A stretch of DNA of 64,000 nucleotides. It comes from Amoebophrya sp. A120. Its lineage: Eukaryota > Protista > Dinoflagellata. The notes beneath the pieces were generated by a model. That model saw only the letters and a program-made list of their open reading frames with translations, searched no databases and was not told the origin of the DNA. The translations under genes were made by a program, and so were the position numbers. This document shows, in pieces, positions 1 through 27,590 of this stretch; position 1 is the first letter of the stretch; every line of letters starts with the position of its first letter. The DNA is taken from the NCBI GenBank assembly GCA_905178155.1, contig CAJINV010000004.1:8066771-8130770 (forward strand), given 5' to 3'.

Positions 1-1429
1 CAAATTTTTCAAGCGGATAGCAATCGCGGATGTTGCAGTGGTAGACACGGAACTATGTACATGCCATGTAAACATTATTTTCGAAATAATCAAGCACGGA
101 TTGCTCGAATCTTACCACGACAAAGCTTCTATTGCAACACTGCTGATAGCCTACTGCTTTTAGAATTTTTTTTTGATTTGAAGCTACCACGAATTTCTTC
201 CCAAAACGCCTAAGAAAAACCACAGCTTCTTACCACACGCCGATAATATTGCTGTACCAAAAAATTTGCAAAAAAAATACAAAAACAAATCTCCGGAAGG
301 GCCACGGCTTTAGATGCGGCCAAATCGTCATATTTCGAGTTCATACAAAGGCTATTTACCTAACACTCTTTTTCGATGTTCCGTAGAAAAATCAGGACAG
401 TGGGAGGCACACTGAAATTTTACAATACTCACTCGAGTGATTTCAGAACAAATCTGAATCTGAGACCACCGCAGATCATAAATGAGAGCGACAGTCTATC
501 GGTTGGGTCGTGAAGAGAGATGGAATGGAAAAGTGTACTCAAGATCCTGCTCCGACATTGCTTAATACGAAATCCATTCCGATTAGCGGAACACGGTCGC
601 AAAATTTCGCAAAGCCAGATCAAAATCATAATCAGCCTACAGTCACTATGAGCTCTGAGTTCAGAATCAAAAAGTAACGCAAATCCTGACACTCTGTGTT
701 TCTTTGAACCAGCCGCGAGACATTCACCCCAACCGAAGCCGCCACAGGAGGAAGTTCATCTGAAATTACCATTTGCGAAGTGACACTTACCAAGAACACA
801 ACAACTTCAAGACATCTTGTAACCGCAAGTGCCTGTTGGACACGACTCTTGTCGACGGAAGTAGGCGTCATAGCTGCTCTATTGTAGACATTGTATACTG
901 ACATAAAGTGCTAAAGTATTTCCTAATTAACCTCTACGTCCGGGTCTGAGTCCTTGTGACAAGATCGCTTAATTAGCCAACTGGTACCTGCACCAATTCA
1001 TTGTTCACTACTTGATTTAGTGTTGCATCCGAAAAAATTCAGGAAGTCTAAGTACATCGTCTTGCAGCCATTAATTCTACGAATTTACGTCAGTCCGTTT
1101 CGATAATTTTTTCATCCAACCGAAGATAGTTCTTGGTAGTTTGTGTTACCGCTACTTTTCACGCTTTTGCGAGGAAAACAGGATTGAAGTGATAGAAGCA
1201 AATAGATTTCTAAAAGAACGCCACTGTGAATACTCAGCACCTAAGTAGTTCAGTACGGAGCCAGCACCAAAATCCTACTGCGTGTATAATTTTGTTTGAA
1301 CAACGAAAGGATCCTGGTAGTGCTCAGTAGAAAGTAACTGTCTGAGCCGTTTTCTTTTTTCGATTTGACCAGTAGAACAAGAGCCGGAAATTTATTTCAG
1401 GTGAACTATCCTGCACAATACAATACACG

Positions 1430-4400
1430 ATGTCAGCTTTCAAGAAGTCATCTCTCCTTCTCGTCGTGGGCGGTTTTTTCAGCGCTCCCAGCTGCATCGA
1501 AGCCGCCTACCTTTCTTCGCGCGAATCCAGTCCGGGTAAGGAAAATTACCACTCGAGGACCTCGGCATATCCTTTGGCCCACAACAAGAATAGCGGGGCG
1601 AGCTCTTCTAGAAGCCGGAGCTCTAGTACTTCTTCGCGAGGAAGTACCCGCCAGGGCGGGGTCGACGTGCCGGGACCGAGCGGAGCTGCAAGCAGCTCAC
1701 AACATTCTTGCGCTGGGGCTGTTCCGCCGCCGTTCGTGTTTGCGCCAGGAATGAACCATGGGGGACAAGAAGAGCAAAATCTTAATCAACAGGGTGGTGC
1801 GGCACCACTACAGCCAGAAGAATTATTGCACACGATCGCTCCAGTCGTATTCGCGGCTGGGTAAATCTTCCATTTTGCTGGTTTTAAGGTCGTCTTGCTT
1901 CTTGTCCCGACCACCCCCAGAGCGGTGGTCGTGAAACAACTTCGTTCTTTTATTTCGTTTTGCTGTCGAGGTGGACCTTTGTGTGAGGTCCACCCAAATC
2001 AAGAATTCGGTCGTGATTAGCAAGACAAATACATGTTAGATTCCGAAAGCCCCAGATTTACCGCAGATCAAAAACAGCATTACAAATTGGCCAAAGGATC
2101 AACCTGAAGATCAAAGCACCAGCACGATCAAAGGTTCCGGAAATCCCTTCGTCATAAATTGTAGTACTGATTTAGCTCGTACAAGAACCGTAGACCACAC
2201 TGCCGCTCACTAAATGGTGAGCGCGATCACAAAAGGGAAAGAGGAGAAGAAGCATCATCACCAAATGGTCGAAATATGCATGACAGATTGCTGTCGGGCA
2301 TTTCCGAGCAGAACGGCCGCCAGCATTACAAATTCATGCTTTGTTTGTCAACCTTCACTGCAGATGCATTAGCTTCTCCACGGGAAACTATTAGGGCTTG
2401 TATGCTTTTCAGCATTACAAATTATTTACGCTTACCTCTAAACACCCTAATACGGGCACAAACGGCATAGCTTATTTTGGAAGGCAAAGGAACACCTAAA
2501 CTACACACGAGAAGCACCGGAGTGCATTACAAACTGAATACTATTCTGATTCCTAGTAGTGTTCAGAATCTTCTTGAGTTTTCTTTTGCGTCTCTCGTCT
2601 TTGGAGTCGTTGGGAAACCTACGCGTGAAAGAAACCAATCGTCAAAATCAGGTGGAGTCACAAGTGGTGGACCCGAGCGGCAACGAAGCCAGAGCGTTTT
2701 TATTTTTATTTGGGTAAATAATAGATACGCACGGCCTTGCTGCATAAAGTTAACTTTTACTACGAGTTTCTATTTTATCTATTTCTTTCTATTTCTTTCC
2801 CGTGGGGAATTTGCATTTCAAATTATCACTTACTACTAATTTTTCTGAGGTTTCTATTTTGTTTTGCAACTGCATCTTGAGAATTTTACGGAAACGGACT
2901 TTACGGGCTACATTTTGGTTTGGTAACAAGCAGAAGTGAATCTAGGTTCAAACAAAAAATGGCGAATAAAATCTTCAATGTCCGCGGCCGGAAATACAAG
3001 CGGCCTAGCAATCTGACGCGGCAAAACCTGGACAGCCTGCATCACTCGGAAACGGATCCGGTGACGGGTGTCGGCGCCTCCCGCATGCATTCGGTTGGAA
3101 CGGCTTCAACCATCTCGCACATGCAATTACACCGCACGCCGGTGCGGGTTCTGGATGAGGATGGCCTCCCGGCAACGTCAAAATACCCGTCCAAGGAGGA
3201 TGCCGGGTCGAGTTGTTTGCCACTGTGTTTTGCGGGTTTGCAGAAGGTCGGCGTTTGCGTCTGGAAAGGACTGCGATTTGCTGTTTTACGGGCGAAAACC
3301 ACTGCCAGCCAGCAGTGGGGCAAGAGCAGTAGTCACACTGGAAGCGCAGACGACATTCCGAAAAAAGGCAGCGTCCACAGCTATGCAACAAGCCGGAAAG
3401 CGTTCGGGGCAGCGGGGTTACGACAGATGGTTACTCGCCCGCGGCGCGGCTCCGGAAGAATGGTTTCAAGCGGTTTGGCGAGGCGCAGCGATGTGGCGTC
3501 TTCTTGTGCGGAAACCGACCGCACGACCAAGACCGGGATCTTCGGCAAGAAAAAAACAGTATCTGGGAAAGGACTGAAAAGCAAGACCACTACTGCAGAG
3601 GCGCCGAAGGATGGAGACGGCGACGGAGCCGCCCCGGCAGTGGCTTCCCCGAGTCTCAGCAGCGTCGTGGGCCGTGTTCTGGCGGTCGGCTCTCATGGTT
3701 TTACCATTGAGACCGCCGCCAGGAATGCAAGCGGAGGCATTACGGTCAAGGGCGTCGACAAGGCGGGCGCTTTGCCGGCCTCCCCTTTCGAAGTGTACAA
3801 GCTGGGCCGAGCGATTCGAAAGGAAGCCGCGAAACACTTCACAACCCCGGCGGGATTTGTGTGCGCCGTCAAACTCTCGAGCGGGTCGATCCGGTTTGAA
3901 TTGGATATCTCCCCACGCGCTCCAGCACGGGCGGACGGCGTTCGAAGCAACTACAAACAAGACGTTTTTCCACCAGTAAAGCGCGAGGACGGACAGATTT
4001 TAGTGCTGGAAGGGTCTTCCGATGCAATAGTTTTCGAGGAGTGCCGCCTGGTTTTGGATTGGATGGAGACTATCGGGGGGGAATTCCACAGAGGGTTCAA
4101 ACAACTCGAACTCCAAGCAAAGGCAAACACCAGTGCGCGGCGCATTTTGCGGACACTTCGAGAACGGGCGCACGGAGAGGCGATGGAGGAAGACGAAGCA
4201 TGGCGGGCTCTTATCCTCGAATTCGGTTACCGGTGCCGCGTGGCCACAAACTTAACGCCAGCGCGGGTCAAGGTTTTCGAGAAGAAGCGCATGCAGGTCG
4301 TGCACAAGTCGAATCTCACCGATTTTGCCGCTACGCTGGAAGAACGTTTTAGCGGGTTTATGGATTTCCGCAGCAGGGAGGGGGACAAGGTTTACAGCCT

Positions 4401-7400
4401 GGACGACAAAGCCGGGACTGAGGATTTCCTAGTTGCGTTCCACCGTCGCCTCACTGCACCTTCGAAACTCGGACCGGAGTTATCAGCTGGCATTCCGGAG
4501 AAGCAGCTGACAAAAATCAAATTTGAGTTGGAAAGAATGCGCGACCCGGAGGCCCCGCATCTCTCTCTCCAACCCCACAACACGACGACGCGGGATTATC
4601 TCAACGCCATGACATCGGTGGCAACAATGGCTCTGAACCAGGCGCAGGATCAAGAAGCTTGGGGTGGGGGTCTAGCTTGCATCGATGTCGACGACCCGGA
4701 GGGCAATGCTTTGATGCCGTTGGGGGGGCCAAGTCTTCAGGGGCGAACGGTCAACATGGCTTGCGGTCTGAAACATTCCGTCAGATACCATGATGAGACG
4801 GACGTGGATACCGCTTATGCGCGAATTTGTTTTGCAAAACAGCTCCAGTTCACCACGTGCAAACTCTGCTCCGACTTGAATGGGAAACAGGTAACGCATG
4901 CGGTTTGCGATCCGTTTCAGAAGCTAACCGGAAAGAGTTTGTGCCCGACAGAACGAGCAGTAGCGAGCGGCCTCACTTTGGAAAAACTGGCACAACTTCC
5001 GGCGGGTTACTGTTCCCGCGCTCTTTGTACTACGCCGGGCGCGACTTCGAGAATTGTGGAAGAACATTTTCTCACCCCGGGATGGGAAGAAAAGCAGCGT
5101 AAGGAGTACGAAGGGCTAACGGTGGAACAGAAGAAAACTTGGCGGCCGAAGTTGAACGACTGGAAGGAACTGAACAAACGCGGAATTTATTCCCACAGTG
5201 CGCCGCAGCGGAACAACAAGAAACAAGGCAAAGGCGGGGGCAAGGGAAGTTTGCACTCGTTGGACGCAAAGGAGCCGGGCAGCACCAGTACGGGCGGCAT
5301 GACCCCGGAAGAACAAGAGTTGATGGAGATGGTGATGGATTGCGACAAACGATTGACGGCGGCCGAAGTCCACCATCCTCCGCCCGAGCCTCGGAACGGT
5401 TTCGCGGGTGTCATCTATATGGATTTTAAAGAGGATGGTCTTCTTAAGGGGTGGCACGAGTCGGATTTTGTCAATTTCTGTGCGAAGACCCGCTATTTTG
5501 AGCTTCGGGAGGACGATTCGGAGTTGTATAACGGAATTGCGATTCGGTTTGTGGATCCGGAAGCAACTGATGATGAATGGATGGGGTTAGGAAAGGTCGA
5601 CGCAGGGCTTGGCCGATCCCCAAACAGAGTCTTCGTCAAGGTGTTCGTCGGAGATGAAACTATTCTGGCGCACTTGGATACCGGAAATACAGTTGACCGA
5701 GCGGGCACCACCTCCAGGGGGGGGGACAATTGCGCCATGAGTTTGGCAGTGGCACAAGAATTGGGTCTCGAAATCCGGAATACTGGGCGCAAACAGTTTA
5801 TCACGGAGGGCACTCGAGAAACAGTTCATGACGCTCGGTATGTTTCTCTCGAGTTCAGGCTCGAGAACAGCAAGGGGGAAAGATCCGGTCTTTTGAAGAA
5901 GGACTTTCTCGTATTGGACAACCTCACCGACGGAGTGAACATTGGATATACTACCCTGCGCGGCCTCGGTGTTTTCGTGTCGGACGAGGAAGAAGGGCTG
6001 GATGCGAATTTGGCGCATTATGTTCTGCTTTCCGACCCGAAAAGGGAGTTGCTGGACCAAGCGACCTCCTACGATGCTGCTACACTTTTCGGGCAAAACT
6101 GGGGTCGGGGGCCGCAGTGGTTCTGCGTGCCGATCGTGAACAGCAAAACGGGATCTGGGTACAGCCTAAAACGGCTCGACGCGGAGTCGGAGATCATCCT
6201 GCAAGCCGGGGATACGGTCCGGGTGGATCTTACCGAGTGGGCTGCAGATCGTATTAAAAATGGAACGTCTGTGCTGGATCTGTCTCCGATGGGCAGGGCG
6301 AAGAAAATAGAAACTACGTTGCCAATCGTGCTGCACAGCTCGCAGTTTGATACCGTGCAGGAAGACGATAGATTGGTGGTGCAAATCACTAATCCCAATG
6401 TTATGGGGAGGGCGCTGGTTCCTAGTGATTTGTTTTGTCTCAAGCATGTCGACCTGAAGTTGGCTCCTGTTCCCGGTCTACCCGCAAATAAGTCGTTTGA
6501 AGTCGGAGAAGGATTTTTTGGCGAAGATGATGACGACGATGTGGAAGGGCGGGCTGAGGATGAAGAGGAATGCGCTTTCGGGACATTGAAGGGTCGAACA
6601 GCGAAGAAGACTGCTAGTGGGCCTCTACAGTCGGTAGGAAGATTTGTTGGAAAATTAGCAGTCGCAGCAGCAGCGGGACTAGCAGTCGGGTGGCAAGGAT
6701 TTTCGGTTCCGCATTTTGCGGCGCCGACAGTGTCAGAACCGGATCTGCATGATGAAAATGCTTTGTCGGCTTCGGAGATGACAAAACTAGTTTCGGACGA
6801 AATCAACACCCGATGCGAAAGGGCAGCCGAAGATCAAGAAGATGAAAGCTGCATGGTGTTGCGCGATTTTTCGGTTACCCCGGCCTGGTGCTGGGACGTC
6901 CCGGCGATGCCTGAAGGAACAGGAGAAAAACGCAACTTCAAGGATTGGAAGGAGTTTATCGAAACAAAAGGACCCGACACTGCGCTCAAGCTACTGAAAA
7001 ACTTGGATTGCGATTGGAGCCAGTGGCATAAGCTTGCGGACTACCTTCGGGCCTGGCGGCAGGAACACGGCGAACACCTGCGGGGACGATTGACAAGGCA
7101 GGTCCGACGAGCCCGATCAGCGGTATTAGGGAAACAAGGTCTTGACAGCCCGGAGGCACAAAGACGGCAGTACCTAAAAACAGTTTTTGGATCGAATTGG
7201 AAAGAGCGGGCGGTGGAGGATGGAAAAGAATCTTTTCCATTTGCGGACCTGGCTACAGCTCTACCGACGGATGGGAGTTTGGACCACCTCCCACCGCTAC
7301 TGCAAATTTTGGAGGCCACTCGGTTGGGTTTGCATTCCGAGTGCGAAAAGGTTCAGGAAGCTGCAGTTCGATTTTTCGATGCGTGGAAAATAACTCGCTC

Positions 7401-10400
7401 CGGCGGAGGAAACGAAGAGGATGCTACTACAGATTTTACTAGAGTTAGCTCGGGGGGCAGTGGTAGTAGCTTTCGCTTGGGCAAAATCGACGAAGACGAA
7501 TACGCAGTACTGATGAAGGAAATTGAGGAAAAGACGAAGAAGCTGGAGAAGGCAGGAGGACTACTAGCTGCGGACTCCGAGGAATGGAAGGAGCAGGTGC
7601 GGAATTACTGGACGGAACATCGAGAACGACTTGCGGGTGGGTTGTCAGATGAGGAGTTTGAAAATTTTCGGGACGAAGTCATCGTTCCTCATGCCGCGCA
7701 GTTTCACGATACCGGGCGCGAGTATCCGGAGCTCGACATCAAAATCCCTATTCCTGACCACAAGTCGGTCGATAATTCCACAGCACCAAGACCATTCCAG
7801 CTGGGGCCGCTCGACAGAATCCGGATGGAGTTTAATCTTCGAGAGGCAGTTGCGGAGGGCAAGTTGATTAAATTCAATCCCGAAGTGCATGACTTCCCGT
7901 TGATGCTCAGTCCTGCGTTTCTTGCAGTGCGCAAGGGACACGCAGCAAAAAGAATTGTTGTTGATTATAGGAAATGCAATTCTTTGGTCACCAACATCTT
8001 CTACGAGATGCCGCAAACGGACCAAATTTTTTCGAAGCTTTTGCGGCGGGGTTCTCGTCTCTTTTCGGCGATCGATTTAGCGCTTGGCTATAATCAGCTT
8101 TCTTTGCCTGAGGAACTACAGAGATGGTTGGCGTGGACGACCGGCGAGGGAATTTATTTCCCACAGAGAATGCCTTTGGGACCCGTTTGGGCACCTTGCG
8201 TGTTTCAAGCTTGGACGCGGTCAACCTTTGAACCCATTCCCTGCCCGGAGACAGGGGAGGAGTTTATCAATGTCTACATCGACGACCTTTGTTACGAGTC
8301 GGCTTCGTATGCAGAGTTGAAGGCGAGGTCGCTGGCATTGTTGGAACAATGTAAGAAGACGGGTTTTGCGTTGAGCCTGCGGAAGAGCTGTTTTGGGTGC
8401 AAGTCTTTGGAGATTCTAGGCTACGAATTTTCGGAAGAAGGACGGAAGCCAACGAAGAAACGCTGCGACCAGTTACGGAACTGGCCAACACCGAAGTCAC
8501 GCGCGGAGCTGTTGTCGGCGGTTGCTTTTGCGAATTTCAGTCGTGAATACATACCGGACTTCACGGAAATCTGTCATCCGCTCCGCCCCTACCTTCGTCA
8601 GAAATCGGACTTCAAGAAATTCCAAGGCGACCCAGCAGCAATGGATGCGTTTAAACGGTTGCGCACCTCCCTCCGGTCGGACGTTCCTTTGAGGGCTTTA
8701 GACCTTGCGGCGGGACAGAATTGGCGCACTACCGGGCGGCCAATTTGTGTTTTGCTCGACGCAAGCATTTATGGAAGGGGTTTTGTCATCGCTCAGCCAG
8801 AGAAGAAGTTCGGGCCCCTGCGTCCGATAATGGCTAAGTCGAGGAGTTTTGCAGCTGGCGATGCGAATTTGGGAACTTTTGAACGCGAGTTGGCGGGGGT
8901 CAAGATGTTCTGTGATTTTGGGTTGAACCTTGTGGAGGGCAGCGAAATTTTCCTACTTTTCGATCACAAGAACTTGGGGGAATCGGAGCTGGAAGAGATT
9001 GCAAGATCACAGGTGAAGTCAGCCAAGGTCCAGCGCTGGGTCGAAGGTATGCTTCCGAAATTGCGATCTCCATTGATTCACCGGGTGCACATTAGTGGCG
9101 AATGCAATATTTTGGCGGATATCGTTTCCAGATTCCCAGCAGAGGGCAAAGACCGCGAAGGAGTGCGGGCCGACCTACAGCGGGTATTAGGTCAGATGCC
9201 GAATGGGGTTCGGGATTGTATCAGATGGCTATTTGGGTCGAAGAAGGACGAAGACCCGAGCGTGGGTCAAGGAGAAATGCAGCCTCTCGGGGTGGCAGAA
9301 CAAAGCCAAGTGCTGCACGTTTCTGCAACTGCCGATGGGAACAAGAAGAAAATAGTAGTGCTTCAGAATGGGAATCGGGTGGAGTACTCTTGGGGGCCGA
9401 GGAAGTTATATCGCAACTTCGACGAGGCAAAAGAAGCTGCGATCAAGGGGCTGCCGGACCGGTTCCGCTCAGATTTATCCCATTCCAACCATCCGAAGGA
9501 ATTTATCGCTCACGATTTGGAAGCAATAGCGAAGCCGCTGCGGGATTTGCAATGCACTGATGGGGTGCAGGAGGTTAAGCTATTCAAAGCGCAGTGGAAT
9601 CCCGGTCGAGAAACAGTTGAGTCGCCACTACTAATTTGTCCGAAACACACCGGGGAAGCACTTCTACGGGCGCCAGGTAGGCGGTGCAAGTGCAATTGTG
9701 GCGTGGCCCCGGTGCGACAGCGGATTATCCAGGATCCGGGTGATGGTTTGCGGTTTTGCCTCCCCATCAAGGACCAAGAGGATTTAATAGTTGCGGAAAC
9801 GGAAGAACTTTTGAAGAAACGGAACACCAGGCAGCGGAGTACTCGCCTGGCCGAATTAGTAGAGCAGTTTGACGCGCTTCAGGAGCAGCGGAATCAGGCT
9901 GGCCTCCTACCGATTTTACAGGAACAAGCGGAGCAGGCCGCTCCCCCTTTGGAAATTTCGCAAAACGGTTTGTCGTCGTCATCTGCTGTTGCACCACTGC
10001 AAATTCACGAAAATGTAGCTGATGTCAACAAGGACGATTTGCATGACAAACAGGATGCTCATGCGAATTGTGATGAAGGGAATAGTGTTAATTTCAGTAA
10101 TTCGGACGTCGAAGAGGAGGATGGGAAGAATTTGCAGGGGGGCAACAGGGATGAAAACGTAGAGCCGTTGCTGGCGATTGCGAATTTTCCTGCAAATCTA
10201 CCTCCGGAACAGGTGGCAGACGAAGACGCAGATTTGGATCCAGCACCGGAAGAAGCCGATCCAGAAGCTATTTGGGTAAATGCTATCTTCAAGAAGGCCC
10301 AGGGAATTTTTCTTCACGATGGACCTACTGTTTTTCGGCTGCAAAGCCTGTACCGGCCGGGGGCGGTTCCGACAAAGGCGACTCCGATTACGGATTTGGA

Positions 10401-13400
10401 GCCGTTAGATGGTGTTTTACTTCTCTGCCAGCACTGCTACGGCGAAACGGTTCCGGAATTTGTGGAAGTAGTGCGACCTCCTCAAGCGTACTACAAGATC
10501 CAGGAGCAGTGGAACTACAAGAAATTCATTTTCTCTGCTCCGTCGAAGGTTTCGGCAGGAACAGGAGCAGGGTTGGGGGCAGTAGGGTCGCAGTTGCCGC
10601 TGCGACGATTTTGGAAAAGCGGATACAAGGGAATGCTGGCTTTTGGCGCACAAGCTCCGCCCCCTGGAGTGGACGAAGAAACGGCAGTTCCGGTGGACGT
10701 TACCAAAGAAAGAATTGCGCAAATGCAGCAAAAGGCCTGGCCAGAACATTTTTGGGTCCTGGACAATGTGGGCCGGTTTTCGTTGGAAGAACTACTTCAA
10801 CGCGCGGCGCGTCGTTGGGGTGTGAAACGGGCAAAGACTGCTATCGACGATGTGAAGCAGAGGCAGTTTTGTCGAGATGCAGACGATGTTCTGATCCGGT
10901 TAGATCGCGACCACGTTTTTAGGGTGGTGGTTCCATCGGGGGAATTTGTGGATGGGGTTGCTGGGTTCGAAGAAGAAGAGCTGACGCACCTGTTTCCCTC
11001 GGGTTCGATTTCGCTTCGCGAATACTTGATCTGGGCCATCCACCGTTCGGCCGTGGGGGCTGCTCACGCGGGTGAGTATGCAACTTTTGTTGAGATTTTG
11101 CGGTGCGGATTCTTGTGGAACAACATGCGGAAAGATGTTGCGGCCTTCATCGCAAGATGCCCGGCGTGCAACACCAACGTGCGGGAACAGCAGTTGATCT
11201 CATCGCGGGCGGAGGTGCTGGAATATGGACAGTTCTTGGATTGCATCATGTTCGATTATGCCGGACCTTACAAAACCACTACTGGCACTGAACAAAAATA
11301 CATCTTCACGGCTTGCGATGTCTTCAGTGGTTATAACTGGATATTCAGCACAGAAAACAAAACCGTCGAGAAAGCGATCGAGTGTTTGGAGAAAATTTTC
11401 AAGCGCTTTGGAGCGCCGAGGAAATTGCGAGCCGACAACGGGTTCGAGCATTTCAAAAACAAGGGCTATGGCAAGCTTCGGGCGTGGATGCGTCGCAACT
11501 TCCCGGCCGTGAAGTTTGTGCCAGGGACCAGCTATCACCCGGCGGGCCATCATGCGGCTGAGTATGTTCACAAATTCTGCACCCACTTCTTCAGAACGTC
11601 CCCAGGCCCGGGCACGCAGTTGGAGTGGTCTGACAGGGTTGAAGATCTCGATCTGGCGCTGAACCGAATGCCGCTCGAAGGAAGGAATGGTCGATCCGCA
11701 TTAGACGTTTTGGGGTTTGAGGTTCGGGGGCAGTTGTTTCCACAATTACGAGCTGCCGTGCCAGAACCCAGTAGGGCTGTTGAGCTATCAATCGGTGATG
11801 CGTTGGACCAGGTCGAACGGAAACGACGGGAACTGGCGGTCGACTGCCTCGAGGATAAGGCTTTGGCGGCGGAACGTACTCGAAAGAAACTGATCGCAAA
11901 GAGGGGTAGCCGGTTTCCTGATGTCATTGTGGGGGATCTAGTTCAGGTGGAGTTGCCACCGGCTCAGGTTCGTGGGAAGCAAGAGCTCGCTGGGGTTTAC
12001 GGAAAGCCGATCTACGAGGTGACTGGAGTTTTAGACCGTGCAGTATACCTGGCTGACCGCAATGGCTCGGCCGATATCCCGATGAAGAATCCAGTCAGCT
12101 TGGACAGAGTGACCGTGATTGGAAATATCGCCGAATACCGAAGGGACGACTACGCTTTCAAAGCTCGGAACGGATGCGGCTGGGTTCGGATTATTTGCGT
12201 TTGGAGGGATTCCGCCACTGTCACACTAGCAGAAGCGGCTCCCATGGAAGTCCGCTACCGGAAGTGGTTTTTAGACAATGAAGTCATACCGATATCCAGC
12301 ATGCCAGCGCAATAGGCGTCCTGGTGTAAAGCGGGGGCATTTGGGTAAATTCAAAAATTGTGCTTTACCCCAGCCCGCCCGACTACATGACACTTGTAAG
12401 ATGAAGACGTTAGATTTAGAACCACCGATGCTGGTACGCACCTACTCACCGCGCTTTCTAAGATTTATTTGGTTTTGGTTTGCACAGCACTGAAAATCGT
12501 ACTTCATATCTCGGGTCTTCGCTATCGTTTACATCGTTGGGAAGACAAGTCGTTTCTAGCATTACAAATTGGGGAAATCGTTTTTGGAAAAAGGTCGTAA
12601 TTACTATCGTGCTACGGACATCGTTTTATCGTGGGGCTAAAGTCGTGAACTAGGGGGGCTGGGCCGAAGAGGATTTTCTTGGCTCAAGTCTCTCTTGCAG
12701 TTTCGACCAGGGTCACTCATAGTTTTGGAAATTTAAAGACGTTCATTTATTTCTGGTTTCGCATGGTAGTTCTATATTGTATGATGATAGTCAGCTAAGG
12801 TTTTGAAAACATTATTTGTTGGTTTGTAATGCGGGTTTCGTCAGGATTCCCGGACTTTCGGCAAAAGTCCTGGGATCTTGATTCCTCAGGACGAGAAACC
12901 GCTTTTCTAGAATAGGAGGAAGGGGGAAAACTTGTTTCTCTTCCCCCCGTTCTCCACTTTCTACATGTATGATGGATTTGTGTACTCTCTCTTCCTGGGA
13001 TTCCAGCTATTTAGGTTTTATTTTATTCTCTTGTATGATTTTCAAACCATGATCTGGGTGAAGTTTCTACTAAGACCGATGGCGCTACAAAGATAGGGAG
13101 GTTATTAGTTTAACGGAGCAGTAGCCGGATACAGAGTGGGACAAAAGCAAGGACAAAGGGTTTTCGATGGGAGTCTTCGTATTCGATTGTGCGCCACTAC
13201 CGGGAGCCAATCGTTTATTTGGGTAAATCTTCCATTTTGCTGGTTTTAAGGTCGTCTTGCTTCTTGTCCCGACCACCCCCAGAGCGGTGGTCGTGAAACA
13301 ACTTCGTTCTTTTATTTCGTTTTGCTGTCGAGGTGGACCTTTGTGTGAGGTCCACCCAAATCAAGAATTCGGTCGTGATTAGCAAGACAAATACATGTTA

Positions 13401-16400
13401 GATTCCGAAAGCCCCAGATTTACCGCAGATCAAAAACAGCATTACAAATTGGCCAAAGGATCAACCTGAAGATCAAAGCACCAGCACGATCAAAGGTTCC
13501 GGAAATCCCTTCGTCATAAATTGTAGTACTGATTTAGCTCGTACAAGAACCGTAGACCACACTGCCGCTCACTAAATGGTGAGCGCGATCACAAAAGGGA
13601 AAGAGGAGAAGAAGCATCGTCACCAAATGGTCGAAATATGCATGACAGATTGCTGTCGGGCATTTCCGAGCAGAACGGCCGCCAGCATTACAAATTCATG
13701 CTTTGTTTGTCAACCTTCACTGCAGATGCATTAGTTTCTCCACGGGAAACTATTAGGGCTTGTATGCTTTTCAGCATTACAAATTATTTACGCTTACCTC
13801 TAAACACCCTAATACGGGCACAAACGGCATAGCTTATTTTGGAAGGCAAAGGAACACCTAAACTACACACGAGAAGCACCGGAGTGCATTACAAACTGGA
13901 TACTATTCTGATTCCTAGTAGTGTTCAGAATCTTCTTGAGTTTTCTTTTGCGTCTCTCGTCTTTGGAGTCGTTGGGAAACCTACGCGTGAAAGAGACCAA
14001 TCGTCAAAATCAGGTGGAATCACACGGCGACCGATCAAAGTCAACAAAGTGGTCCTCTTCAAAATGCCCAACCGATCGGGCAACAATACCAGCAGTGCCA
14101 ATTTTTTTATTGCGCCGTCCCGCTCGCGAACTATCTGCAGGGGCACCAACCGCAGCCCGAGCATTTTTTTCAGCACAACTTTCGGCAAGATGATGAGTTC
14201 ACTGTCTACGTCGATCCGCTAGTCGATATACTTAACAAGGAGTGTGGCGAGGATAATTCGGAGAAAATCCTCGACACGATCGAACAATACCTACACCACC
14301 TCACCGTTATCAACGCCGAGGGGTGCTGCGCGGCTAGGATGGTAAACGACCACCTCAGTCTCTTGCGAAGAGATGGAAACGAAATTTTGCGGCGGTTGGA
14401 CACCGCCAAGAAAGAACTACTTTTCGGTGGGAAGGAAGGTAGATCATCCGGTAGAAGATCATCATCTTCAGATGGTGCGACGAATGATAATTCTACCGGA
14501 GTAGGTCTTGGTGTGCTGTCTGCAAATAAGATCAGCGCGCTTTACTCGCTGTTCCTCCGAACGGTGTTAACCTCCTCAGCGCACTTCCTGTTCGCAACGG
14601 GTTCGGCTGCTAATCTTCCCACGACCACGAGGTTTCGCTTCCCGGAGAAGGCCTGGCTTTCCCTCCTTCGCCGGATCGCGGAGGACAGTCTATGCAATGC
14701 AAAAGCATCCCTGCACTAGTATAAATTGCATTACAAATTAGCACAGCATTACAAATTGAATTTGTAATGCTGATTTACCTTGGGAAAGAGATTTGTAATG
14801 CATAAATGCAATTTGTACGAGTACGATGCTTTTGCACAGGATACAGACCGAGATTCGACGAAATTCTCGCGGAAAAAATCACGGAGAAAACCTTCCCGAC
14901 CGTGTGGTGGCAAGTATGCATTGCAAATATGTCTGGGTCCGGAAAGTTGCAACTTGTCATGCTAATTCTGGATCGTGCAAAAATCTGTGTTGTATGAATG
15001 CCAAAAGCTGTCCGCTTTTGACCAAGTTGGGAGGAAATTTCTCATGCGGGATGGCCACGATAGGGATCTCACAGAATCTGTCATGCTAGATCCTGCATTC
15101 CGGACGAGATCGATCATGGAAAATTTGTATGACAAGCCACGGAATCTTCCAGAGGACCCAGACATATTTGCAGTTCATAGCAAGCACACGATAGCAACGT
15201 TTTCCTCTCGGATTTACTTCTCGACCATGTATCCCACTTGCAAAAATCTCTACTGCGGAAAAGCGCAGACTGGGGAGAAGGATTGTCCGGCGAGAAGTCG
15301 AGCCGATTCTACCGGGAGAACTTATTCGAGTCGAGAAGAATCAAGACGAACGGGCGCGTGCACGAAAATTTCGATTCGGTAGACAAGGAAACACTGGAAG
15401 TGTTGGACAAGATTACCTCTTTGCTCTCTGTCGTGTACCGGAAGGGGAGAAATAATTTCAAGTTGAACCACCAATCCGATTTTTCCTCCACGATCTTCCA
15501 AATCGCCGCAAAAGCCGCGGTGCATTTAAAGCCAGGACCCTTAGCCTTCTGGCGCGACGGGTTTCAGAACGACGACGCCCAATTCCAACAGCCCGACGGC
15601 GTTGGCAACTCGAAGAACCGGGAATACCGGAGGTGCCGGGGGGGCCGGGTCTGCGGGGAAGTTCCGGACCGGGACAGAGCGGTCAGCGAGAGTTCTAGCG
15701 ACGAGGAGCTCCCGGAGGACTACGACAGCGACCGAGATGGGTTGTGCAGCAAAGCGCACCTCGCGTTCAACATGACGAACTACATGCGGCACCGGCTGGA
15801 CAAGCAGCGGTTCATCTACCAGGCCTTGTCGAAAGCGCTGGAACTGATGGTGAGGAGTCTGGTTGGGGCGCCGATTGTAGTGGCTCCCGAGCAGGACGAC
15901 TATCAACATGTTGATCCCCAGAGCAGGATGAATTATCGGCATTTGAGTACCTGGAACGCAAACTACGCTATCGCGGTGGAGATCCACCGAGCTTTTCTCA
16001 AATCCACCCTGCTGGATAGCAAGACCTACGCGAAACCGAATAAGACGCACAAAGTGCCAAGCTTAGTCTTCTTTCGGTACCTGAGTGTTTTTCCGGATTT
16101 CTTCAAGATCGTGAAATACATCCGGCTGAACTTGCAGAAAAACTTGACCTTCTGGCGAACGAATCGCAACTTTGTCTGGGTGCCTCTCTATCAAATGCAA
16201 ATGTGTCTGGGAGGTCTGGAAGGTTGCAACTTTTCGTGATGCTGTGTTTGGATTCTATTTCTAAAAAAGATTTGTCGAGCATGACCAGCAAGAGGAATCC
16301 ACCTTCTACTACGTGGGGAGGGCGTTTCTCATGTGGAACAGGCATGAGGAGGCGCTGTAAAAATTTGTGATGCTAGGTCATGCATTACAGGCATCTTGGG

Positions 16401-18316
16401 TCTTCACGCAAAATATGCATGACAAACCTGTCACTCTTCCAGGCCCAGACATACTTGCAGTTGATACCCTCAGCAGCAAGGCCCAGTGGATCAAGAACGT
16501 GTACTACAAAACCTTCGCGTGGACCTACAAGCCGAGAGGGAGGTCCTCCGCGGATGTTGAAGATGTAGAAAATAACCTTTCCCCTGCTCGCAGCTCTGAT
16601 CCGGCTACTCGGAGGACCAATTCCTTCGGCACCAGTAGAAGTACTAAATTCCTGCATCCCAAACTCAACCCACTCCCGGTGTCCGCGCTGGATTTTTCCG
16701 AGAAGCGAAACGGGCTGCAGGCACTGAACCCGGAAGATTTCTTGCACCTCCTCCCGACCGATAGTGTTCTCGAGCTCCAATCTGCGATCCATATCACCGC
16801 GGGGAAGACGGCGCAAATCAGCGATTATAGTGAAATGGCGCAAAACTTCAACCGGTTTACCACTGCGACCATGCGGTCGTTGTATTCGGGTGAAAAGGAC
16901 TGGAAGCTGCAGGAACTGTTTACGAAGGAATTTCTCGAGAAGGGGCTGCACTGGTTCAACTGGTTTTTGGAGTACAAAGCCGGGCGGAATTTGAACAATT
17001 TACCCTCTTTTGTCCTTCCCCGAAAAGCAGACCAGGTCTCCAACCCCGACCCGACGCGGGTTGCGGAATCCTCCGAAATAACGCTCCGCCAGCGGGAAAT
17101 TAACGGGATTGCATACCACCTGATGCCAGAGGAAAAAGACGCGGAGTTCTCCAGCTACATAGGCGCCTGGGGGCTTTTCGCGAACAAGTTGACGCCCGAC
17201 GCGCTCCAAAAAGACGTGCGGTTTCAGGAATTGCTCCTAAAAGTGTCGGAGAAGTTGGTATCGGCAGTGGAGAAAAATGCAAAGGGAAAAGACAATTTTG
17301 CAAAAGACAGAAATACCCACATTCCCTCCTTCGAAGAAGTTGTAAACCGTCTCCCCTTAGCTGCGCAAGAGAAAGTCGGCGGCTTCTTGGGCGATGTCGC
17401 GACGGAAGGTTTGAAGTCGGTGCCGGTAACGCGGAGAATAACCCGGAACGAGTTAACCGGCAGGTACTTCGTCGCCGTCGGCATCGATGCTCCCGCAGGG
17501 GGGGCAGACGCGAATTGTCTCGACCAGGAGAAAAAACAGCAGTGGACGTTGTTTTTCGACTTGTTTTTGCGCGCGCACACGAAATTGTCCGAAGCGCTCA
17601 AGTACCGGCTCGCGCGGGCGGATCCCAGGCTGCTGGAAGACCACGCCTACCGGGAACAACTACAAGATGAATCTGGTGGGCAGAAACCTGCTCTTCTCGT
17701 GGAAAACAACGAGGCAAATCGGAGGCTTTTCGGCCCGCGGGAGGGGAAGGAGGAGCGAAGGAAAAGGAAAATAAGTGATGCCGCGAAAAGAAAGAACCTC
17801 GTTCTTGCGGGCAGGACAAGTGCCAACGGTGCCAGTTCTTCGTCAACAACAACATTTTCCAGCCCTACAACACCTCCGCAAGAACTACTTCCACCTAATC
17901 GACAACAAGAATCTAGCTTGCCGGAGTCGAAAGCGAGGCTCTGGAAAGAGCTGGGCGACTGGCGGATACCGATTGATGTACCGGCTGAAAATAGCGAGAC
18001 GACGGGACAACCGAATTGTTCAGATGACAATCTAACGTACGTGAGAATGGAGCGCCGCATTCAGTTTTTACTGGACCAGCTCGGGAACTCCCCGCTGTTC
18101 CGACTCTTAGAGCAATCCACTATTGCCTCCAGCTCGGTACGGCAGCCGGTGGCGAAGGTGTTCCGGCCGCCGTTGTTGCCAAGTGGAAAGGAAATGGAGG
18201 AGAACCAGAAATTCTTAACGGAAGAATTAAAGCCGGTGAGAACGATTGGGGAAAAGCTGCAGAAACTGCGAGAAGAGTGGGAAGTTATTGGGAAAGTGCT
18301 AGAACAAGCCGCGTGA
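1430..18316 (+). CDS. Large (~1330 aa) putative secreted protein of unknown function, interrupted by the LTR retrotransposon and three introners (exons ~1430-1857, 14029-14690, 14849-14914, 15185-16188, 16472-18316)
   Basis: N-terminal signal-like MSAFKKSSLLLVVGGFFSAPSCIEAA. Removing the LTR element plus one CGGC gives ...VVFAATDQSQQ..., in frame with ORF 14339. Removing the introners then joins ORFs 15238 and 16367 without stops. Confidence 0.75.
1858..2662 (+). repeat. 5' LTR (805 bp)
   Basis: TGGGTAAATC...GGAGTCACA, repeated at 13220-14024 with about 5 substitutions seen by eye. Confidence 0.97.
2665..2680 (+). promoter_or_regulatory. Primer binding site, probably tRNA-Ala
   Basis: TGGTGGACCCGAGCGG lies 2 nt after the LTR. 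Its complement ...GGGUCCACCA has U70/A73, typical of the tRNA-Ala acceptor end. Confidence 0.7.
2959..12315 (+). CDS. Single gag-pol polyprotein (~3118 aa from first ATG): gag-like region, aspartic protease, RT, RNase H, integrase, C-terminal SH3/GPY-F-like region
   Basis: Protease HLDTG (~5677); RT RIVVDYR, IDLALGYNQ, YIDD (8275); RNase H LDAS, ERE, FDHKNL, NILADIVSR; integrase H-H-CPAC plus D(YAGP), D(NG), E. The ORF is uninterrupted. Confidence 0.95.
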   Translation: MANKIFNVRGRKYKRPSNLTRQNLDSLHHSETDPVTGVGASRMHSVGTASTISHMQLHRTPVRVLDEDGLPATSKYPSKEDAGSSCLPLCFAGLQKVGVCVWKGLRFAVLRAKTTASQQWGKSSSHTGSADDIPKKGSVHSYATSRKAFGAAGLRQMVTRPRRGSGRMVSSGLARRSDVASSCAETDRTTKTGIFGKKKTVSGKGLKSKTTTAEAPKDGDGDGAAPAVASPSLSSVVGRVLAVGSHGFTIETAARNASGGITVKGVDKAGALPASPFEVYKLGRAIRKEAAKHFTTPAGFVCAVKLSSGSIRFELDISPRAPARADGVRSNYKQDVFPPVKREDGQILVLEGSSDAIVFEECRLVLDWMETIGGEFHRGFKQLELQAKANTSARRILRTLRERAHGEAMEEDEAWRALILEFGYRCRVATNLTPARVKVFEKKRMQVVHKSNLTDFAATLEERFSGFMDFRSREGDKVYSLDDKAGTEDFLVAFHRRLTAPSKLGPELSAGIPEKQLTKIKFELERMRDPEAPHLSLQPHNTTTRDYLNAMTSVATMALNQAQDQEAWGGGLACIDVDDPEGNALMPLGGPSLQGRTVNMACGLKHSVRYHDETDVDTAYARICFAKQLQFTTCKLCSDLNGKQVTHAVCDPFQKLTGKSLCPTERAVASGLTLEKLAQLPAGYCSRALCTTPGATSRIVEEHFLTPGWEEKQRKEYEGLTVEQKKTWRPKLNDWKELNKRGIYSHSAPQRNNKKQGKGGGKGSLHSLDAKEPGSTSTGGMTPEEQELMEMVMDCDKRLTAAEVHHPPPEPRNGFAGVIYMDFKEDGLLKGWHESDFVNFCAKTRYFELREDDSELYNGIAIRFVDPEATDDEWMGLGKVDAGLGRSPNRVFVKVFVGDETILAHLDTGNTVDRAGTTSRGGDNCAMSLAVAQELGLEIRNTGRKQFITEGTRETVHDARYVSLEFRLENSKGERSGLLKKDFLVLDNLTDGVNIGYTTLRGLGVFVSDEEEGLDANLAHYVLLSDPKRELLDQATSYDAATLFGQNWGRGPQWFCVPIVNSKTGSGYSLKRLDAESEIILQAGDTVRVDLTEWAADRIKNGTSVLDLSPMGRAKKIETTLPIVLHSSQFDTVQEDDRLVVQITNPNVMGRALVPSDLFCLKHVDLKLAPVPGLPANKSFEVGEGFFGEDDDDDVEGRAEDEEECAFGTLKGRTAKKTASGPLQSVGRFVGKLAVAAAAGLAVGWQGFSVPHFAAPTVSEPDLHDENALSASEMTKLVSDEINTRCERAAEDQEDESCMVLRDFSVTPAWCWDVPAMPEGTGEKRNFKDWKEFIETKGPDTALKLLKNLDCDWSQWHKLADYLRAWRQEHGEHLRGRLTRQVRRARSAVLGKQGLDSPEAQRRQYLKTVFGSNWKERAVEDGKESFPFADLATALPTDGSLDHLPPLLQILEATRLGLHSECEKVQEAAVRFFDAWKITRSGGGNEEDATTDFTRVSSGGSGSSFRLGKIDEDEYAVLMKEIEEKTKKLEKAGGLLAADSEEWKEQVRNYWTEHRERLAGGLSDEEFENFRDEVIVPHAAQFHDTGREYPELDIKIPIPDHKSVDNSTAPRPFQLGPLDRIRMEFNLREAVAEGKLIKFNPEVHDFPLMLSPAFLAVRKGHAAKRIVVDYRKCNSLVTNIFYEMPQTDQIFSKLLRRGSRLFSAIDLALGYNQLSLPEELQRWLAWTTGEGIYFPQRMPLGPVWAPCVFQAWTRSTFEPIPCPETGEEFINVYIDDLCYESASYAELKARSLALLEQCKKTGFALSLRKSCFGCKSLEILGYEFSEEGRKPTKKRCDQLRNWPTPKSRAELLSAVAFANFSREYIPDFTEICHPLRPYLRQKSDFKKFQGDPAAMDAFKRLRTSLRSDVPLRALDLAAGQNWRTTGRPICVLLDASIYGRGFVIAQPEKKFGPLRPIMAKSRSFAAGDANLGTFERELAGVKMFCDFGLNLVEGSEIFLLFDHKNLGESELEEIARSQVKSAKVQRWVEGMLPKLRSPLIHRVHISGECNILADIVSRFPAEGKDREGVRADLQRVLGQMPNGVRDCIRWLFGSKKDEDPSVGQGEMQPLGVAEQSQVLHVSATADGNKKKIVVLQNGNRVEYSWGPRKLYRNFDEAKEAAIKGLPDRFRSDLSHSNHPKEFIAHDLEAIAKPLRDLQCTDGVQEVKLFKAQWNPGRETVESPLLICPKHTGEALLRAPGRRCKCNCGVAPVRQRIIQDPGDGLRFCLPIKDQEDLIVAETEELLKKRNTRQRSTRLAELVEQFDALQEQRNQAGLLPILQEQAEQAAPPLEISQNGLSSSSAVAPLQIHENVADVNKDDLHDKQDAHANCDEGNSVNFSNSDVEEEDGKNLQGGNRDENVEPLLAIANFPANLPPEQVADEDADLDPAPEEADPEAIWVNAIFKKAQGIFLHDGPTVFRLQSLYRPGAVPTKATPITDLEPLDGVLLLCQHCYGETVPEFVEVVRPPQAYYKIQEQWNYKKFIFSAPSKVSAGTGAGLGAVGSQLPLRRFWKSGYKGMLAFGAQAPPPGVDEETAVPVDVTKERIAQMQQKAWPEHFWVLDNVGRFSLEELLQRAARRWGVKRAKTAIDDVKQRQFCRDADDVLIRLDRDHVFRVVVPSGEFVDGVAGFEEEELTHLFPSGSISLREYLIWAIHRSAVGAAHAGEYATFVEILRCGFLWNNMRKDVAAFIARCPACNTNVREQQLISSRAEVLEYGQFLDCIMFDYAGPYKTTTGTEQKYIFTACDVFSGYNWIFSTENKTVEKAIECLEKIFKRFGAPRKLRADNGFEHFKNKGYGKLRAWMRRNFPAVKFVPGTSYHPAGHHAAEYVHKFCTHFFRTSPGPGTQLEWSDRVEDLDLALNRMPLEGRNGRSALDVLGFEVRGQLFPQLRAAVPEPSRAVELSIGDALDQVERKRRELAVDCLEDKALAAERTRKKLIAKRGSRFPDVIVGDLVQVELPPAQVRGKQELAGVYGKPIYEVTGVLDRAVYLADRNGSADIPMKNPVSLDRVTVIGNIAEYRRDDYAFKARNGCGWVRIICVWRDSATVTLAEAAPMEVRYRKWFLDNEVIPISSMPAQ
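13220..14024 (+). repeat. 3' LTR (805 bp)
   Basis: Direct copy of 1858-2662, followed by the TSD CGGC. Confidence 0.97.
14691..14843. mobile_element. Introner family B (short, TATNNNNTGCAAAAG TIR)
   Basis: TIR; direct repeat (DR) CAGTC/CAGAC; removal restores the frame. Confidence 0.85.
14915..15179. mobile_element. Introner family A (TIR ...ATGTCTGGGTCTGGAA)
   Basis: TIR; DR GCAAG/GCAAG. Confidence 0.9.
16189..16466. mobile_element. Introner family A
   Basis: TIR; DR CTCTC/CCCTC; joins ORFs 15238 and 16367. Confidence 0.9.
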
Positions 18317-20464
18317 AGATAGGGAAAGATGGGTAGTTGCTTTCATCGTGCTAAGTATTGGTACTGAAGCAGTTGTGGACAGACTTCCGTTGCGTTAAGC
18401 CTTGCGAGGATGAACACTACGCCAGGTGGTTGAATTCTATAGACAGATTTAAGTAATTTTAAGCATAGAGGAAACCAAATACAAACTCTTATTGTCTTTA
18501 TTGCCGTTAATACTCCGTATTTGCTAAACCAATTAGACAGCTTCATGCCGTCGCACCTGCAACTTTTGCACGATATACAACAGTAAGTACCTATAGGCAT
18601 TTACCACTACCCGCCTAGCTGCACATCACAATACTTAAATATATAGACAAATTCATTGCTCAAGGTACTTCCCGCAAATTCAGAATTGAAAATGGAAAAA
18701 TCCTCTGTGACAAGTTCTTTCGCAGATCAACTCAAGTCTGCAAATCGAAGAAACCTCGACTCATAGATAAAAACGGCCATTCGGGAATAAAGCACAATAT
18801 CGAGCGCTGGAATTAGGTACTGGTTAAATAAGTAGATGATGATCGTTTGTTGCGCTCCTGATCCGCTGTACTAGAGACAAATTATGGACAATCAGCACTA
18901 CAACCATATTATTTCTTTCCTGAGAAATTCACACGCTTTCAAGTTAATTGCAATTCAGTTCGAGAAAAACAATTTGAAAAGACAGAAAGTCATGTAAAAA
19001 AAGAAGCTCTGAAAGGCACGAAAAGTAATGAACTCAATGCCGCGCTCTGCAAACTTTTTGCCCGATTTTGTCTTGAGAAAGACGGCAAGAAAAAAGGAAA
19101 ACAGTGTGGAATCATATAAGAATGAAAACCTCTTCTCCATTACAATCCCAGATTAGGGATGAGGAACAGAAAATCATGAACCAGTGCAGCAGTTCTAGCG
19201 GAGTTGTGTTCATGAGGTGAACTAAGTGCAAGCACAAAAGCAAAAACGCTCGTTATCGAAATAGGTAAAAGGCACACGAAAGTGAACGCGTTTTTCCTTT
19301 TCAAATCAGTTTGGATCGAAGACCGCAAAAAGAAGTTGAAGATGCTGCCTTACGTACTGAAATTTTTACCGCTCTCAGAGAAAACGGATCTTCGCATAGT
19401 ACGTGATTGTACGTAAAGCTTAACGTAGAATTTACGTAAAAGCTTAACCCTAATACTACCCTCCGAAGATCCCCGAGCAGCGGCGCTAGAAATTCTTTTG
19501 CATAGTTCCATTTTGAAATTCCTTCTTTTTTGAAATGCTATGGTCATGCCGCGATTTTTTCACCTTGATAATGACATGCACGAAGCAATAGAAGCGTGAG
19601 GCCGTTGATCCGTCCTCCAGAATACGAACCGGATCTTCAAACCGACACCTTTTCCATAGTACCCATCCATCGAAACCAATAATTTTCTGCCCAACTAATC
19701 CTACTACAATAATTGACGACTCGAAAAATTATGTTATAGTGGCCAAACTATCCCTTCCAAAAAAATTGTTTCTTTACAAAAAACAGGAGACCATCGTGGT
19801 AATTTCAATTTTTTGATTAAGATTACTAGGTCTACTACTTTTTAGGACGGGCTGAATCGGCTTCATGAATTCTTCGAGGTAATTTTCAATTAAGCTTGGA
19901 AGGGAATTTGCGAGAACTTTTGTTGGACTCCAGCTTTCTTCCTATATTGATTCTTATCCCGACTGAGTTCTAGTCGTTCTTCTACTTTTTTCGATCTGCT
20001 ATCCATAATCTGTTCCTGTTGTACCGCAGTCATCAGCTAGGGTCACGACAATTTGTTCTAATTGTGTCGTGTTTTACGAGATTGTAGTTTCACCTCTCTT
20101 CAGAAGTTCTATATCCAGTTTTGCTTCAAAAAAAATTGTACGATATTGTCCTTGCAGTAGAGTAAAGGAAAAAGCATCTACTTCCCGGAAACAATTTCTT
20201 AGTAGACAAAACGAATCTAGGCCGGTGCAATAAAATTTCGAGATTCTTCCTCGAAAAACTGTGTACAACTACCGCCCTGTTTTGTCAACACCATTAAATA
20301 CTTCTACAACTAGGTAGCAGTAAGAGAAGAACACAGTAACACAGTGTTTTTATAGCGTTTTGTTTCTTCGGACTCTTGCTGTGCACTAGAAAATAATCCT
20401 TCTACTCGCTACTGCACCTTCTACGTATATCAGAGACTAAAGCTCTAAACTCACCAAATCAGAA

Positions 20465-25201: not shown

Positions 25202-25263
25202 AACAGGATGTTGTTGTGGGAATAAGTAGAAGATGTTGTAGTGTTTCTTCATGCGAAAGTACT

Positions 25264-27360: not shown

Positions 27361-27577
27361 TATGACGGTGCACAACTCCCCCTCCCCCTCATTTGTATAG
27401 CATGACCGGCAATACAGGCATCAGCAAGAGTGCCGGTTTTGCATGACAAATTTGCACTGGATTGTAGTGCTATTTGGGCGCCCAGAACTTGTCATGCATA
27501 ATAGTGACAGGAGGAAAAGCGTGGATTTGGTATTCTGCATGAGAAATGAGAACGAGGGGGAGTTGTGCACTGTCATA
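27361..27577. mobile_element. Introner family G (TATGACGGTGCACAACTCCCCCTC TIR), probably in a 5' UTR
   Basis: TIR; DR CACGG; lies upstream of ATG 27591. Confidence 0.85.
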
Positions 27578-27590
27578 CACGGAGCCTTGG

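Follow-up and report, generated by a model that had tools for sequence, protein, structure and literature searches.

The transposons known to make introns are mostly short and non-autonomous, and it is still an open question whether their splicing reflects an adaptation on the part of the element (PMC12130899). In the dinoflagellate Amoebophrya, Farhat et al. 2021 (PMC7789003) described introners, i.e. transposon-like sequences that are removed as introns; in that study introns were limited to 10 kb, and those of 40-1000 nt were analysed. LTR introners have likewise been reported, dinoflagellates included: in Gozashti et al. 2025 (PMC12130899), some introners of strain A120 are attributed to LTR retrotransposons, Copia families of Panicum virgatum provide full-length and solo-LTR introns, and Dataset S2 gives fam22 of Polarella glacialis as an LTR/Gypsy family that carries both splice sites. 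The statement in the first-pass annotation that nothing of this kind had been described in dinoflagellates is thus too strong. Among the 58 family rows for A120 in PMC12130899, none has LTR as its final class, and no full-length LTR introner is found among them.

Here we analysed a window of 64,000 nt, the whole stretch of Amoebophrya sp. A120 DNA under study, in which a young, intact Gypsy-type retrotransposon lies in sense orientation within a coding exon (all coordinates refer to the window, and all features are on its + strand). The whole element is missing from the host mRNA, which is joined in frame at sites borne by the LTRs.

Sequence comparison shows an LTR pair of 805 nt each, at 1858..2662 (LTR1, the 5' LTR) and 13220..14024 (LTR2, the 3' LTR), which are 99.4% identical with five differences, and whose identity ends exactly at TG at the start and at CA at the end. 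The pair is flanked by copies of a target-site duplication (TSD), CGGC, at 1854..1857 and 14025..14028. Two nt behind LTR1 a primer-binding site is inferred from LTR-element anatomy (2665..2680), a 16-mer that starts with TGG and is complementary to a tRNA-like 3' end closing with CCA. A single intact open reading frame of 3118 aa (2959..12315; from the ORF list, Pfam and motif patterns) follows the Gypsy order, with a protease-like DTG (aa 907, called from the pattern only), a reverse transcriptase (RT) with YIDD (aa 1773), RNase H, an HHCC zinc finger and an integrase core. In Pfam, RVT_1, RT_RNaseH and Integrase_H2C2 scored above the cut-off and rve below it, and no family matched a Gag in the element protein. 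The best RT relatives are Gypsy-like proteins with 32-44% identity, one of them from Amoebophrya AT5.2. Direct TG...CA LTRs, a short TSD, the order of the pol domains and a primer-binding site agree with Ty3/Gypsy elements. A polypurine tract adjoining LTR2 was not found, the 15 nt before LTR2 being 40% purine and the only run made up wholly of purines in the 3' untranslated part lying about 290 nt upstream of it (12914..12930), and we therefore label the element 'Gypsy-type'. The LTR folds more stably than its shuffles (z -3.2, 20 shuffles), with a centroid structure in which the two splice sites are not paired with each other, and an Rfam search of the whole window gave no match.

The first exon of the host gene (721..1860) comprises the 5' UTR and the coding sequence from the ATG at 1430, and extends through a TSD copy to nt 3 of LTR1; RNA contigs match it over 721/750-1862 with zero differences. 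The further exons were likewise placed by RNA contigs: exon 2 (14014..14689) takes in the final 11 nt of LTR2, runs on through the TSD, and is followed by exon 3 (14848..14909, listed for run X6, while X5 shows a gap of the same 62 nt), exon 4 (15180..16185) and the last exon with the 3' UTR (16469..19173, the stop codon ending at 18316). Three non-canonical inverted-repeat introns lie between them, at 14690..14847 (missing from the RNA contigs, with borders uncertain by a few nt), 14910..15179 and 16186..16468. As the X5 and X6 contigs cover the downstream exons without these three introns, they represent RNA. The joined host frame is open for 1340 aa, with no stop in 1340 codons. The one relative found, 81% identical to aa 219-614, covers the C-terminal part only; Pfam found no match in four host pieces, and the lack of a homologue of exon 2 among longer proteins is weak evidence. 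In an estuary RNA run (X8, a small share), three contigs match introner repeats only, and a raw RNA run under the same species label (X10) contributed 0 reads, which counts neither way.

The RNA evidence consists of assembled contigs from one study, which give no strand and no level and from which rare forms are dropped; these contigs join 1860 to 14014, exactly at the sites that had been predicted. The junction letters are visible in three of the four RNA-like runs (two samples, one study), and the fourth (X5) agrees by coordinates. Runs X3 and X4, from the two samples, each yield one contig (5535 and 5511 nt; depths of 29 and 94.6) in which a perfect match to the upstream exon, reaching 1862, is followed by the 3' LTR end, then the TSD and then the downstream exon. 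A contig of X6 has the mirror loose end at 14013, and in a 5480-nt contig of X5 the match begins at 14013, with 1030 nt left over whose letters are not displayed. The contigs thus leave the upstream exon at a GT (1861..1862) at LTR position 4 and enter at an AG (14012..14013) 11 nt before the LTR end, the junction carrying the letter variant of the 3' LTR, an A at 14019. The intron so defined (1861..14013) measures 12,153 nt, i.e. the element minus 3 + 11 nt, and its removal is probably performed by the host spliceosome.

The joined form could instead reflect a genomic deletion in the RNA cultures or a template switch across a short repeat. Contigs cannot tell the origin of a join, the DNA contigs come from another sample than the RNA, and the junction does bear a 3-nt repeat (GGT); since four registers fit this repeat, the GT-AG register was chosen as the only canonical one and not read directly. 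Yet the join fits GT-AG, is identical in two samples and differs from the solo-LTR product of recombination, and the RNA runs hold pieces identical to the inner 3' end of the element plus LTR (X5, 13120-13235). Moreover, in the other sample's DNA both insertion borders are spanned unbroken, the left one in run X1 (contig 200-1886, depth 40.4) and the right one in run X2 (13995-14756, depth 30.8, neighbours 26). We consider such an origin highly improbable. No empty (insertion-free) allele occurs in the DNA contigs.

The sequence bears out the arrangement that had been read from the LTRs: their boundaries, the GT at 1861 and 13223, the CAG|G at 2651 and 14013, and a footprint of 3 + 11 + 4 = 18 nt by which the host protein gains six amino acids in frame (VFAA-GWNHTA-TDQSQQ). 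The footprint had also been said to hold no stop in any frame, which is true of the three sense frames with either version of the LTR, a stop being present in one antisense frame. As both splice sites lie within the LTR, and the integrase likely always gives a TSD of 4 nt, any copy inserted in sense into an exon would leave the frame unchanged and add six codons without a stop. The geometry by itself is not far from chance, and it is the RNA that lifts the case above it. In 200,000 draws of random 20-nt ends bounded by TG..CA, the pair of first GT and last AG kept the frame in 16%, and was also free of stops in 8%.

These figures bear on a second explanation, by which splicing is real and its fit is a matter of luck and survival: the LTR happens to own a usable GT and AG, and a harmless copy persists without selection on the family. 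Besides the chance fit of 8-16%, the modest donor score agrees with it, as the LTR-start donor ranks only 165-169 of 674 GT sites in a matrix built from 11 host GT-AG introns chosen by eye, and splice sites in this host can vary widely (PMC7789003). On the other hand, the acceptor ranks 6-7 of the 872 AG sites in 1430-14700 by the same matrix, i.e. in the top 1%, and the 1860-14014 join dominates the contigs as a single precise junction despite an intron about 40 times as long as the host introns observed here. Alternative acceptors in frame close to the 3' end (13968, 13995, 14040 and 14049) score low and are absent from the contigs.

A motif restricted to introns also speaks against mere luck. 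As had been proposed, the LTR shares a motif with host introns: GCATTACAAA occurs four times per LTR, always on the + strand (at 2077, 2323, 2412 and 2524 in LTR1), far above the mean of 0.05 and maximum of 1 in 2000 dinucleotide shuffles. It is absent from 11,982 nt between genes and from eight exon or UTR stretches (11.9 kb), and the three introners within the same host gene have this internal motif in common with the LTR. The motif copies may help the host to read 12 kb as an intron. The idea that the LTR is itself a captured introner was rejected, the matches with introners spanning only 14-19 nt and terminal repeats being absent.

The same product could be reached by another route, either in two steps, with splicing from 1861 to the AG of the 5' LTR (2650..2651), which is directly followed by GT, so that a donor is rebuilt and then joined to 14013, or by a non-canonical, repeat-guided pathway of the host. 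Both LTR ends offer AG|GT, and these sites outscore the LTR-start donor (ranks 25 and 54 of 674, in a small matrix); the element holds four further copies of the donor context, and U1 snRNA is undetected in this host (PMC7789003). The AG at 2650..2651 was never seen as a final junction and is a candidate intermediate site, but the 1860-2652 joint, which would mark the intermediate as well as a 791-nt solo-LTR intron, is absent among the contig joints of runs X3 and X4, from which a rare one would be dropped. A route of this kind seems unlikely to us.

Related copies bear on whether direct splicing at the LTR sites is a trait of the family. The summed depth of DNA contigs roughly fits two full-length copies, with one spliced locus seen, which agrees with luck and survival. 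The proposal that the element neutralises its own exonic insertions holds for the present one, where the RNA junction is in frame; its extension to solo LTRs acting as introners is unsupported, as no solo LTR was seen in the contigs, the copies are about two full-length ones, and a deep RNA contig (X5, 13206-14026, depth 277; no strand, acceptor letters not visible) contains the complete, unspliced LTR of a subfamily about 91% alike. A variant contig of this subfamily begins 30 nt before the first listed difference (13248), so that by contig geometry its first 28 nt, donor included, should match. In X4 a single loose end of 25 letters represents another, diverged LTR end, which runs into the same TCACA and primer site; it keeps CAGG, with the AG again 11 nt from the end, and differs in four of the five following letters. 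An exact search of metagenome contigs with the first 21 nt of the LTR gave one match, to an unrelated, bacterial-looking contig, which we attribute to chance, and viral contigs held no related locus by protein or by the pattern of LTR end and primer site.

The diverged LTR end with its AG at the same distance, the matching subfamily donor and the enriched motif favour selection, and this one diverged end suggests that splicing is likely an adaptation of the LTR. Against this, exonic insertions that are not, by chance, spliced in frame are lost, so that a single locus cannot show adaptation, and the integrase requires conserved LTR ends in any case, which can account for the conserved donor. 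The modest donor score and the unspliced subfamily LTR also count against selection. We treat luck and survival as possible, if doubtful. The reading that we favour, with some reservation, is that the element is spliced from the host mRNA at the GT and AG of its LTRs, leaving 18 nt in frame, probably by the spliceosome and probably as a selected LTR trait. A young element has inserted in sense into a coding exon, and in the host mRNA the GT of the 5' LTR (base 4) is joined to the AG of the 3' LTR. The donor sits where U3 begins and the acceptor where U5 ends, so that the element's own genomic RNA, which runs from R to R, would carry the two sites in reverse order and escape cutting. The chances seem about even that an autonomous Gypsy lineage of Amoebophrya has evolved intron-mimicking LTRs, whose donor (base 4) and acceptor (11 nt before the end) are tuned to a 4-nt TSD and which bear the motif that marks host introns, with an RNA of its own that is never cut. 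If so, this 12-kb retrotransposon, though fully mobile, would be designed as a stealth intron.

A complete young retrotransposon precisely removed from a coding exon via its own LTR ends is an intron gain caught at birth, and the locus offers a direct test of the adaptation idea. Splicing at the LTRs likely lets such insertions escape selection. Furthermore, a GT-AG intron of 12 kb can be removed by a host whose introns measure a few hundred bases and in which U1 snRNA is undetected.

In Drosophila, a 412 insertion in the untranslated first exon of vermilion was reportedly found by Fridell, Pret and Searles in 1990 to be spliced poorly and at several sites. That insertion is antisense according to PMC4691828, whereas the present one is sense, coding, in frame and dominant in the contigs. 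In comparison with the introners of the same host (PMC7789003), which are short, carry inverted repeats and mostly have non-canonical ends, the intron described here is GT-AG and 12 kb long; at 12,153 nt it falls outside the view of a study limited to 10 kb, and annotation with such a limit would miss genes of this kind. The introner of Aureococcus sp. (Gozashti et al. 2022, PMC9860276 Fig. 2F-G) is similar in that each element carries both splice sites and that the remnant and the TSD together keep the frame, with 4 + 8 = 12 nt and four amino acids there, 14 + 4 = 18 nt and six here; by contrast, that paper lists it among short introners of likely DNA-transposon origin, while the Amoebophrya element is a 12-kb protein-coding retrotransposon. 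With the LTR introners of PMC12130899 it shares that an LTR element, autonomous in the Panicum case, is reported as intron-forming. The locus shows what defines an introner, an exonic insertion spliced out of host mRNA by element-borne sites with the frame kept; an introner family in that study takes at least four similar introns in unrelated genes, so that an element of about two copies, with one spliced locus shown, would fall below the threshold. Panicum fam15 is a Copia family classed as 'co-opt both', with conventional donors in three of ten, whereas here a Gypsy element brings its own GT and AG; and while Polarella fam22 measures about 400 nt and has one RT_gypsy match, the Amoebophrya element is full-length and its junction is seen in RNA.

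The host mRNA loses exactly 12,153 nt, in frame, between a GT and an AG that are borne by the LTRs of a Gypsy-type retrotransposon inserted in sense into a coding exon. Twelve sequencing runs were listed and eight were compared against two stretches each containing one LTR, so that the join is visible as loose contig ends and not as a listed joint. Two RNA-like runs, X3 and X4, which come from separate samples of the same study, provided one contig each (5535 and 5511 nt); both match the upstream exon to 1862 without difference and continue into the terminal letters of the 3' LTR, the target-site duplication (TSD) and the downstream exon; their junction letters carry the A at 14019 of the 3' LTR, where the 5' LTR has G. 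In X6, the upstream exon appears as a loose end ahead of 14013, and in X5 the match of a 5480-nt contig starts at 14013, with 1030 nt left over. The junction letters were read in three of these four runs, the fourth (X5) being consistent by coordinates, and the joining of 1860 to 14014 predicted by the first-pass annotation is borne out. The junction contains a 3-nt repeat, and GT-AG is the sole canonical register of the four possible.

Assignment of X3-X6 to RNA follows their records and is a guess, which intron loss in X5 and X6 supports: their contigs cover 14013-14689, 14848-14909, 15180-16185 and 16469-19173 without the three intervening inverted-repeat introns, which DNA would retain. 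In the two DNA-like runs (X1 and X2, from a different sample), the locus is seen neither empty nor joined, since single contigs cross the left (200-1886, depth 40.4) and right (13995-14756, depth 30.8) borders unbroken, contigs demonstrating presence and not absence. Estuary RNA (X8) matched introner repeats only, and the raw RNA run X10 contributed no reads. We regard splicing at this locus as nearly certain. The spliceosome would remove the element independently of the target site, because donor and acceptor both sit in the LTR, and the element's own RNA would be spared from cutting, because under standard LTR architecture it would begin downstream of the donor and terminate upstream of the acceptor. 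Judging from the sequence, a two-step removal using the AG|GT that lies near the 3' terminus of the 5' LTR is possible, but its 1860-2652 intermediate is absent from the listed contig joints.

Excision of the element with one TSD in silico reopens the host frame; excision of 1861-14013 instead leaves 18 nt, which add GWNHTA after VFAA, and the 14 LTR-derived nucleotides are stop-free in every sense frame. The exons as joined comprise 1340 codons without a stop. The host gene (1430-18316) encodes a 1340-aa product whose N-terminus is hydrophobic and, by eye, resembles a signal peptide; the protein has no match in Pfam and one relative (81% identity across the C-terminal 400 aa).

The GT and AG noted in the first-pass annotation are confirmed in two LTRs of 805 nt with TG...CA bounds (1858-2662 and 13220-14024), which have CGGC on either side and differ at five positions. 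A single ORF (2959-12315, 3118 aa) contains RT, RNase H and integrase, arranged as in Gypsy elements, with YIDD and HHCC motifs apparently intact, and a primer-binding site lies 3' of the 5' LTR. The label "Gypsy-type" was chosen because no purine tract was found adjoining the 3' LTR, the sole pure purine run lying ~290 nt upstream of it. The RT region has 19 relatives among 7981 scored candidates (best five 32-44% identical, one of them from Amoebophrya AT5.2). The sequence context of the LTR start, the 12-mer ATTTGGGTAAAT, has four + strand copies in the element, behind the primer site (2708), within pol (10270), behind the ORF stop (12339) and at the 3' LTR start (13217), and no further copy on either strand of the window. 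These could be internal donors or, with no adjoining purine tract, additional plus-strand priming sites.

Summed contig depth, a rough guide and not a copy number, is in X1 ~80 for the inner element versus 40 for the flank, with ~130-205 for the near-identical LTR after subtraction of a diverged subfamily, and in X2 77-90 versus 26-31. These ratios fit about two full-length copies with few or no solo LTRs, so that the proposed role of solo LTRs as introners found no support. The LTR of that subfamily, present in about one copy, is contained whole within a deep RNA contig continuing into its flank (depth 277 in X5, 136 in X4); if this RNA is sense, the LTR alone is not always spliced. RNA of this subfamily (matching 11977-12356 and 13206-14026; X4, X5) reaches depth 136-277 versus ~1-15 for the intact element; in DNA it has about one copy, and its RNA contigs extend into ~5 kb of flank. 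At 1857, two X1 DNA contigs carry other 5' flanks of the LTR, whose mixed 30-letter consensus is GC-rich, stop-free in three sense frames by eye and too short to call exonic.

By itself the splice geometry is weak evidence of selection, survival filtering for such fits: with simulated random ends, 16% keep the frame and 8% keep it stop-free. A matrix built from 11 host introns that were chosen by eye places the acceptor at rank 6-7 among 872 AG sites and the donor at rank 165-169 among 674 GT sites. Judging from the start point of its contig, the subfamily (~91% alike) would share the first 28 nt of the LTR, which integrase alone may explain. In X4, a loose end of 25 letters carries another version of the LTR end, joined to an identical TCACA and primer site. 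This version retains CAGG and has its AG likewise 11 nt from the end, but four of the next five letters differ and one base is added just upstream. In X1, a joint runs from 1879 to 1964 (depth 73), with dissimilar sequence behind 2006 and 2700; joining these pieces, we infer, would suggest a shorter LTR with an identical start as the source of the X4 end. The motif GCAT(T/C/G)A(C/G)AA has four copies per LTR, all sense (shuffles: mean 0.05, maximum 1, n=2000), one in the element's ORF and 98 in a set of 34 inverted-repeat elements that were called by script and are partly mis-paired; it is patchy in canonical introns (7 of 11), and none occurs in 11,982 nt of intergenic sequence or in eight host exon/UTR stretches. 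The shared start, the diverged end with its AG kept and the motif point to selection on the LTR; its adaptation is likely, on thin comparative data, and splicing together with such selection appears somewhat better supported than not.

Of 25 introners examined, 17 have their last sense GCAT(N)ACAA-type motif beginning 40-50 nt upstream of the 3' end, with a mirror copy near the 5' end (e.g. 20700-20952, 33127-33388, 45583-45844); because of its UnAC core and this distance, a candidate branch point available in either orientation is suggested. The last copy in the LTR lies 127 nt from the acceptor. The neighbouring genes (20467-25202, 27200-36916, 40450-46640, 50330-58520) are all on the + strand and introner-rich, and by their motifs we take them to resemble, in order, a carbohydrate-kinase-type dehydratase, a protein kinase, a CobW-type GTPase and a kinesin, the kinesin alone having been checked (one of its exons matches, at 100% identity, a protein labelled Amoebophrya sp. 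A120). The window's short introns begin with a TAT..AAA motif, which PMC7789003 describes for A120. By eye, a ~55-nt repeat (37701-37756 and 38641-38695) flanks a GC-rich intergenic segment and may mark the termini of a further mobile element.

The Drosophila 412 insertion at vermilion is reportedly a related earlier case, and Roy et al. 2023 is said to treat dinoflagellate introners and may affect how new the present case is. The literature searched, which covered few subscription papers, contained no description of this element. According to PMC12130899, LTR introners are known, among them Copia introners of Panicum, both full-length and solo; A120 introners are partly attributed to LTR elements, the final class LTR is absent from all 58 A120 rows of the dataset, and a Polarella LTR/Gypsy family in Dataset S2 carries both splice sites. 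Single introns of retrotransposon origin are mentioned elsewhere (PMC11282704), and an Amoebophrya intron study limited introns to 10 kb (PMC7789003). In PMC9860276, an Aureococcus introner follows the same arithmetic as the element here, with 4 + 8 nt.
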